Shown here: piece after piece, positions 61,695 to 61,870 of the stretch
Layout: each line of letters starts with the position of its first letter
Numbering within the stretch: the stretch's first letter is position 1
Assembly (NCBI GenBank): GCA_040901675.1
Contig: JBBDYJ010000014.1
Location: 39,305 to 103,304 of the forward strand
Length of the DNA: 64,000 nucleotides
Direction of reading: 5' to 3'
Origin: Pirellulales bacterium
GTDB lineage: Bacteria > Planctomycetota > Planctomycetia > Pirellulales > JAICIG01
Notes under the pieces: model-generated
Databases searched by the model: none
Told to the model about the DNA's origin: nothing
The model's input: only the letters and a program-made list of their open reading frames with translations
Position numbers and translations under genes: made by a program

Positions 61695-61870
61695 CCAGAC
61701 CAGATATCCTGGCTCGGGGTCAACCTACCGCCACCCTTCCCGGCCCGTCGGACCAGTGGCACGTGGCGTTCGTCACCCTTACAGTCGCGGGGCGGCGGGA
61801 GCTTTGCACTCCGCTTCCCTGGAATCCGGAACGTTTGTTTGAAGCGGCCTGGAGCAGCTCCCGGCGCTTC
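61695..61870 (-). promoter_or_regulatory. Cobalamin (AdoCbl) riboswitch in the 5' UTR of the TonB-dependent receptor gene
   Basis: Minus strand reads ..AGGGAAGCGGAGUGCAAAGCUCCCGCC..CCCCGCGACUGUAAGGG..GCCACUGGUCC..CGGGAAGGG..GAGCCAGGAUAUCUGGUC, matching the B12-box (GCCACUG) and core consensus. Confidence 0.6.

Follow-up and report, generated by a model that had tools for sequence, protein, structure and literature searches.

A cobalamin riboswitch upstream of btuB is the founding example of its class, and such elements are routinely detected by Rfam and form part of the textbook account of B12 uptake control. The AdoCbl riboswitch of E. coli btuB was reportedly described by Nahvi et al. in 2002, and Johnson et al. 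are said to have characterised the structures of cobalamin riboswitches with an L5-L13 kissing loop in 2012. In Bacteroides, btuB-btuG loci carry a cobalamin riboswitch before a BtuB homolog, together with lineage-specific accessory neighbours. [quoted passage not shown]

The locus described here was found in a 64-kb stretch of DNA, which is referred to as the window. It is a genuine but ordinary cobalamin riboswitch ahead of a BtuB-like receptor gene, in a member of the Pirellulales (Planctomycetota). As in the AdoCbl riboswitch of E. coli btuB, an RF00174 aptamer precedes the gene of an outer-membrane TonB-dependent B12 receptor in a monocistronic leader, the start codon is closely preceded by a stem-loop that contains the SD, and an intrinsic terminator is lacking; the full length of the receptor itself is covered in the alignment with E. 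coli BtuB. Unlike the E. coli element, the one in the window is planctomycetal and GC-rich, has a much shorter spacing between aptamer and start (38 nt after the Rfam match) and shows no match to the consensus P2, its receptor scores below the BtuB equivalog cutoffs, and tests of an L5-L13 interaction gave no cognate preference. With the env8 HyCbl and Thermoanaerobacter AdoCbl riboswitches it shares the four-way-junction core, the B12 box and a regulatory hairpin that carries the ribosome-binding site (RBS) shortly after P1. Compared with env8, which is a class-II / AdoCbl-variant element without P6 extension and has its RBS in loop L13, the element in the window has a covarying P6 extension typical of AdoCbl-selective class I, and its SD is located in the 3' arm of the hairpin. 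Finally, Bacteroides has its accessory neighbours in btuB-btuG loci, whereas in the relatives of the window the conserved neighbours are a DUF1559 prepilin-like gene and a convergent tonB that in some cases has a cobalamin riboswitch of its own.

The identity of the aptamer was established by comparing the 64-kb window with all 4227 Rfam families. The RF00174 (Cobalamin) model matched at 61866..61682 (minus strand) with 85.8 bits against a gathering score of 31.5, with an E-value of 9.8e-20 for the whole 64-kb window and with model positions 1-189 of 189 covered. This match is far above chance, and a repeated Rfam run on 56000-64000 gave it again at 61866..61682 (minus strand). A second cobalamin aptamer was detected neither in the 64-kb window by the Rfam scan nor at E <= 1 by a sensitive rescan of 56000-64000. 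The aptamer and its core motifs are as follows.

61682..61866, minus strand, cobalamin riboswitch aptamer (extent of the RF00174 match)
61753-61760, minus strand, B12 box GCCACUGG (from the sequence and the Rfam alignment)
61814-61819, minus strand, core motif GGGAAG (string located by program, as for the four motifs below)
61798-61812, minus strand, core motif GGAGUGCAAAGCUCC
61776-61792, minus strand, core motif CCCCGCGACUGUAAGGG
61734-61742, minus strand, core motif CGGGAAGGG
61700-61714, minus strand, core motif AGCCAGGAUAUCUGG

The B12 box and the junction nucleotides GGGAAG, GCCACUG, GGGAAGG and AGCCAGGA all lie within 61700-61819 and are invariant in 8 orthologous leaders. The initial annotation had called a cobalamin riboswitch upstream of a TonB-dependent receptor and had named a search with RF00174 as the way to check it; the search returned the significant match given above and the call is confirmed, the aptamer being located 38 nt 5' of the receptor ORF. 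Every motif string listed in that annotation was also recovered, on the minus strand and inside 61695-61870.

The helices of the aptamer were derived from a consensus fold computed with RNAalifold on 8 orthologous leaders. The minimum free energy (MFE) fold of the whole leader had a z-score of -0.93 and did not recover the known aptamer fold; as it was uninformative, the covariance model and the comparative fold were relied on instead. The consensus fold of the 8 leaders recovers P1, P3, P4, P5 and the P6 extension, and 16 of its 45 pairs, in P1, P5 and the P6 extension, changed on both sides in a compensatory manner. No variation across the 8 leaders occurs in P4 or in the pairs next to the junction, which are therefore uninformative on covariation. 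On the basis of the covarying P6 extension, the predicted architecture is that of a class-I, AdoCbl-type element, and family membership taken together with this architecture makes AdoCbl selectivity most likely. The segments involved are listed below.

61825..61832, minus strand, 5' strand of P1, GUUCCGGA (paired with 61692-61699 in the consensus of 8 leaders)
61692..61699, minus strand, 3' strand of P1, UCUGGAAC (RNAalifold consensus)
61846..61858, minus strand, distal 5' segment GCUGCUCCAGGCC, also able to pair with the P1 3' strand (taken as P1 in the Rfam alignment)
61740..61756, minus strand, P5 hairpin with loop L5, CUGGUCC-GAC-GGGCCGG (fold of -8.7 kcal/mol; P5 covaries across relatives)

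The 5' strand of P1 is followed on its 3' side by a UU bulge and then by CCAG, which pairs with CUGG at 61700-61703, and in the relatives P1 likewise abuts P3 via a UU(U) bulge. Compensatory changes in P1 are found for instance in the related loci L083 (GCAAUCAGA/UCUGAUUGC) and L084 (UGUUGUCAG/CUGACAACA). In the Rfam alignment, P1 is instead formed by the distal segment, in which 12/13 positions of 61846-61858 pair with 61689-61701; this assignment was rejected, as all relatives support the proximal P1, made by the segment directly 5' of UUYCAG-GGAAG. The P2 hairpin of the model is unaligned or non-canonical in the window, where the region between the distal segment and the core has no P2 match in the Rfam alignment and, as judged from the aligned sequences, P2 is absent in the clade. 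Since P2 is a variable peripheral element, its lack is no argument against membership in RF00174. It was also observed that one and the same 3' strand (UCUGGAACA, 61691-61699) is able to pair with 61825-61832, 61846-61858 or 61636-61643 (minus strand).

The gene controlled by this leader was identified from its ORF and domain matches.

59578..61644, minus strand, BtuB-like TonB-dependent receptor gene, 688 aa, GTG start

The receptor ORF is intact and is the next ORF on the same strand, 38 nt downstream of the Rfam match; it appears to be monocistronic, with a downstream gap of about 265 nt. Its Pfam domains are Plug (110 bits) and TonB_dep_Rec_b-barrel (162 bits), and in the sequence itself a signal-peptide-like segment and the TonB-box-like PETTVIG are recognised at the N-terminus, while W is the last residue of the barrel; residue T59 is invariant in 15 homologs. 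Both of the best NCBIfam models are BtuB (TIGR01779 with 310.4 bits and NF007926 with 268.3 bits), the next ones being heme receptors at 176 bits. These scores are under the respective equivalog cutoffs (310.4 vs 599.7 for TIGR01779, 268.3 vs 836 for NF007926), and the protein is for this reason termed BtuB-like, or BtuB-type, rather than an equivalog of BtuB. In the PDB, the best match is E. coli BtuB (1nqf; E-value of 4e-60, 207 bits, query 81-677 aligned to chain 9-583), and the runner-up, the colicin I receptor, reaches about 110 bits over query residues 81-213 only. The nearest database homologs, at 96% identity and then at 62% or less, are encoded by Pirellulales MAGs, and many receptor homologs carry the JGI label 'vitamin B12 transporter'. 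The prediction of a BtuB-type receptor in the initial annotation is thus supported by the best NCBIfam family and by the best full-length PDB match, which are both BtuB, at scores below the equivalog cutoffs. Judged by its sequence matches, the receptor is the organism's probable corrinoid importer.

For the comparison with relatives, 8 contigs that carry the nearest homologs of the receptor (56-62% identity) were fetched together with at least 160 more distant loci, which were derived from scans of genome and metagenome contigs and showed 51% identity or less among the matches listed. Searches with RF00174 placed an aptamer directly upstream of the receptor in 8/8 close and 9/10 distant loci (17/18), and in 8/9 further loci an aptamer was found upstream of a receptor homolog, which gives a total of 25/27 scanned loci with an aptamer before the receptor (the receptor proteins of L081 and L082 are identical). 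The linkage between aptamer and receptor is kept among relatives that are 36-62% identical and belong to several phyla. Literature searches combining cobalamin riboswitch with Planctomycetes and TonB-dependent returned nothing beyond work on a mutualism between Synechococcus and heterotrophs.

Several particularities were noted in individual loci of this set. One of them (L092) has tandem cobalamin aptamers, at 2965-3157 and 3302-3469 (plus strand; 103 and 80.5 bits), before a single receptor homolog. In L087, the called start of the receptor homolog P0010, at 2835, is probably 59 codons too far downstream, because the conserved SD hairpin precedes, with the usual spacing, an in-frame ATG at 2658. 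In the close relative L084, a PduO-type Cob_adeno_trans gene (ATP:cob(I)alamin adenosyltransferase family; 6828-7373, plus strand) is located two genes downstream of the receptor, after a PRA-CH gene and on the same strand, and its proximity to the receptor would be consistent with corrinoid salvage.

Between the aptamer and the gene, the following elements of the expression platform were recognised in the window.

61649..61677, minus strand, SD-sequestering hairpin GCUCGUUUCC-UCGCG-GGAAAGAAAGGAGC (conserved; equivalent of P13 / the anti-SD:SD helix)
61650..61655, minus strand, Shine-Dalgarno AAGGAG, 5 nt before the start codon and in the 3' arm of the hairpin (read from the sequence)
61642-61644, minus strand, GTG start codon (receptor ORF start)

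A hairpin of the form GCU..CUUUCC-loop-GGAAAG.AAGGAGC is present in 8/9 close leaders, and L083 has an analogous hairpin that pairs the SD; the start codon is situated 52-61 nt past the aptamer core in 9/9 close leaders. The lower stem is nearly invariant and shows little covariation because the SD is itself invariant, and a compensatory change was seen in L086 (GUUC/GAAC vs GCUC/GAGC elsewhere). Partition-function folds leave the SD mostly paired (probability of being unpaired, 0-0.45). A terminator scan of the minus strand between aptamer and gene gave no intrinsic terminator (stem plus U-run), and control by such a terminator was dropped as a candidate. The promoter scan found no sigma-70-like promoter on the minus strand, and the promoter region is bounded to about 61867-61959 by a cluster of REP-like repeats upstream (61960..62112).

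Possible couplings between the aptamer and the hairpin were evaluated. In the window, the duplex between L5 (CCGACGG) and the hairpin loop (UCGCGGGA) has an energy of -6.4 kcal/mol as computed by RNAduplex. Across leaders, no cognate preference of L5 for L13 was obtained (p = 0.13 with 9 leaders, p = 0.82 with 46 leaders) in a crude test that counts canonical pairs only; real L5-L13 kissing loops include non-canonical pairs and bulges (PMC5028336). A P1-driven anti-sequestor was rejected, as forcing or forbidding P1 in constrained partition-function folds gave no systematic shift in SD accessibility. Neither the kissing-loop tests nor the P1-constrained folds demonstrate coupling of ligand and hairpin. 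The segment UGUUCCAG (61636-61643) includes part of the start codon and CUGGAACA (61691-61698) part of the P1 3' strand, and the two are exactly complementary; this 8-bp complementarity was matched by 10/2000 shuffles, and the corresponding helix is formed when the 3' part of the leader is folded by MFE. The same complementarity extends over 7 bp in L084 (31/2000 shuffles) and is absent in 7 other relatives, and it was discarded as a conserved platform element, since only 2/9 leaders have it.

From family and architecture, which also suggest its polarity and its ligand, the element is considered as a functional B12-responsive OFF switch on the receptor gene, with a probability of roughly 85%. 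In the proposed mechanism, a corrinoid coenzyme, most likely adenosylcobalamin, would bind the aptamer (about 61832-61692), upon which the downstream hairpin 61649-61677 would keep the SD AAGGAG base-paired, so that loading of the 30S subunit at the GTG (61644) would be blocked and less outer-membrane corrinoid receptor produced. At low B12 the SD would be accessible and the receptor would be made. By analogy with E. coli btuB, the ligand would be coupled to the hairpin through an L5-L13 kissing loop and/or an exchange between anti-SD and anti-anti-SD pairings. A conserved hairpin that holds the SD at a fixed distance from the start codon is a signature of translational control, and control is somewhat more readily seen as primarily translational than as anything else.

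The main competitor of translational control assumes a real aptamer whose primary action is transcriptional, through premature termination, Rho-dependent or otherwise, in the leader or in the early coding region, occlusion of the SD being secondary or absent. [quoted passage not shown] However, the minus strand is free of intrinsic terminators between aptamer and gene, and the hairpin containing the SD is conserved at a fixed distance from the start codon; a primarily transcriptional control is accordingly held to be unlikely. Less probable still is a three-way competition for the P1 3' strand, in which the proximal P1 5' strand, the distal segment 61846-61858 and the start region 61636-61643 would be the competitors, and in which opening of P1 would mask the start codon and add an extra, or inverted, ON logic. 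An ON switch would be physiologically senseless for a B12 importer, and P1 is transcribed, and able to fold, long before the start region emerges. The exact 8-bp complementarity of CUGGAACA and UGUUCCAG with its counterpart in L084, the start-codon helix obtained on MFE folding of the leader's 3' part and the pairing of the distal segment with the same strand all speak for such a competition, but the complementarity was noticed post hoc and is missing from 7/9 close leaders.

One may also suppose that the receptor imports a non-corrinoid substrate, or that the aptamer is a decaying relic without regulatory role. The aptamer nevertheless exceeds the gathering score by 54 bits and its core is intact, its linkage with the receptor is kept in relatives that are 36-62% identical and come from several phyla, and BtuB is by far the best full-length match of the protein, which leaves very little room for these suppositions, the least probable of those considered. 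What can be said for them is that the receptor stays below the equivalog cutoffs of the NCBIfam BtuB models and that btuFCD, cob and tonB were not encountered among the ORFs annotated from about 49 to 63 kb. The preferred reading, an OFF switch acting on corrinoid uptake, would imply that the bacterium scavenges external B12 and adjusts its uptake to the intracellular level of the coenzyme.

The surroundings of the receptor gene were compared with those of its relatives. In six loci (L081, L082, L083, L086, L125 and L113), the riboswitch and btuB are accompanied by a convergent tonB and then by a DUF1559 gene on the strand of the receptor. The corresponding features of the window and the DUF1559 neighbours in the relatives are given below.

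58239-59312, minus strand, DUF1559 / prepilin N-methyl gene of the window, downstream of the receptor and on the same strand
59443..59545, unstranded, three REP-like repeats directly downstream of the receptor gene, where relatives have tonB
61960..62112, unstranded, three REP-like repeats upstream of the riboswitch
L081 7377-8567, DUF1559 neighbour
L083 7687-8772, DUF1559 neighbour
L086 7894-8958, DUF1559 neighbour
L125 6462-7550, DUF1559 neighbour
L113 6828-7895, DUF1559 neighbour

No tonB was found anywhere in the 64-kb window, and tblastn gave no remnant of it in the gap between btuB and the DUF1559 gene. Nor was there a degenerate second aptamer in this gap, comparable to the one that precedes tonB in relatives, even at E <= 1. 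Among the ORFs annotated from about 49 to 63 kb, btuFCD, cob and other B12-related genes were likewise lacking. Aptamers upstream of the convergent TonB_C gene were observed in L083 (7124-7352, minus strand, 93 bits) and in L086 (7336-7578, minus strand, 74 bits), and by sequence the tonB paralog of these two loci appears to be B12-regulated as well. The DUF1559 neighbours share 32-48% identity with each other, vs 54-61% among the receptors, and their orthology is thus unproven; control of DUF1559 by a riboswitch was rejected, as the gene stands directly behind an aptamer in no locus scanned. The neighbouring DUF1559/prepilin gene also points to Planctomycetota.

The REP-like repeat is 21 nt long (GAAYTCTGGCGRRTYCDGCTA) and occurs in 11 copies with at most 4 mismatches, distributed over four intergenic clusters (52148-52251, 56290-56355, 59443-59545 and 61960-62112), with zero copies expected by chance. 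The clusters are of alternating orientation and fold into long hairpins. The repeat is specific to this genome, being absent from 169 related loci except for one match with 4 mismatches in L067. The region 59400-59580 folds at -77.5 kcal/mol, and the cluster at 59443..59545 may act as a terminator or as a stabiliser hairpin.

A corrinoid-uptake module specific to the lineage of Pirellulales-like planctomycetes can be imagined from these arrangements, composed of riboswitch-btuB, a convergent tonB that is sometimes riboswitch-controlled, and a DUF1559 protein as an accessory in B12 capture, the window being a derived state in which tonB would have been lost to the REP-like cluster. This module is regarded as unlikely, and a functional link between DUF1559 and B12 is speculative; if the module were real, it would offer a first functional handle on the huge planctomycetal family of DUF1559 paralogs. 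As a whole, the finding matters little beyond annotation. The details of the clade (no P2, a short conserved SD hairpin, the synteny with tonB and DUF1559, and a tonB riboswitch in relatives) are useful for the annotation of planctomycetes and would not surprise a specialist.

The initial annotation had further related the riboswitch to a B12-dependent radical SAM (rSAM) enzyme at 37016. The ORF concerned (37016-38527, plus strand), which is 24 kb from the riboswitch, does have a radical SAM core (Pfam Radical_SAM with 54 bits, and DUF4070 with 24 bits), and its best NCBIfam matches are all B12-binding class B rSAM families, at scores far below their cutoffs (75.6 vs 577.6 bits for the best of them, the hopanoid-associated HpnJ). 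The B12-binding domain PF02310 reached no more than 19.6 bits, its cutoff being 32.1. The radical SAM part of the proposal thus held and the B12-binding part fell below the cutoff; a cobalamin-dependent rSAM is a plausible identity for this ORF as far as its profile matches go. In the segment 36104-38527 (plus strand), an IspH/LytB gene comes first and the class-B-like radical SAM gene follows immediately after.

Two other features of the window are mentioned for completeness. An isolated RF02005 match (group II intron D1-D4) lies at 45397-45511 (minus strand, 77.5 bits) and has an internal deletion of 111 nt relative to the model; no domain V/VI match was present within 3.5 kb of this site, where a reverse-transcriptase ORF was also lacking, and the ORF overlapping the match gave weak TPR and GT2 matches only. 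The window also carries 19 tRNA genes in two dense same-strand arrays (6 + 13), at 29879-30513 and 32993-34484 (minus strand) and about 2.5 kb apart, and a further tRNA-Leu gene at 14281-14364 (plus strand).
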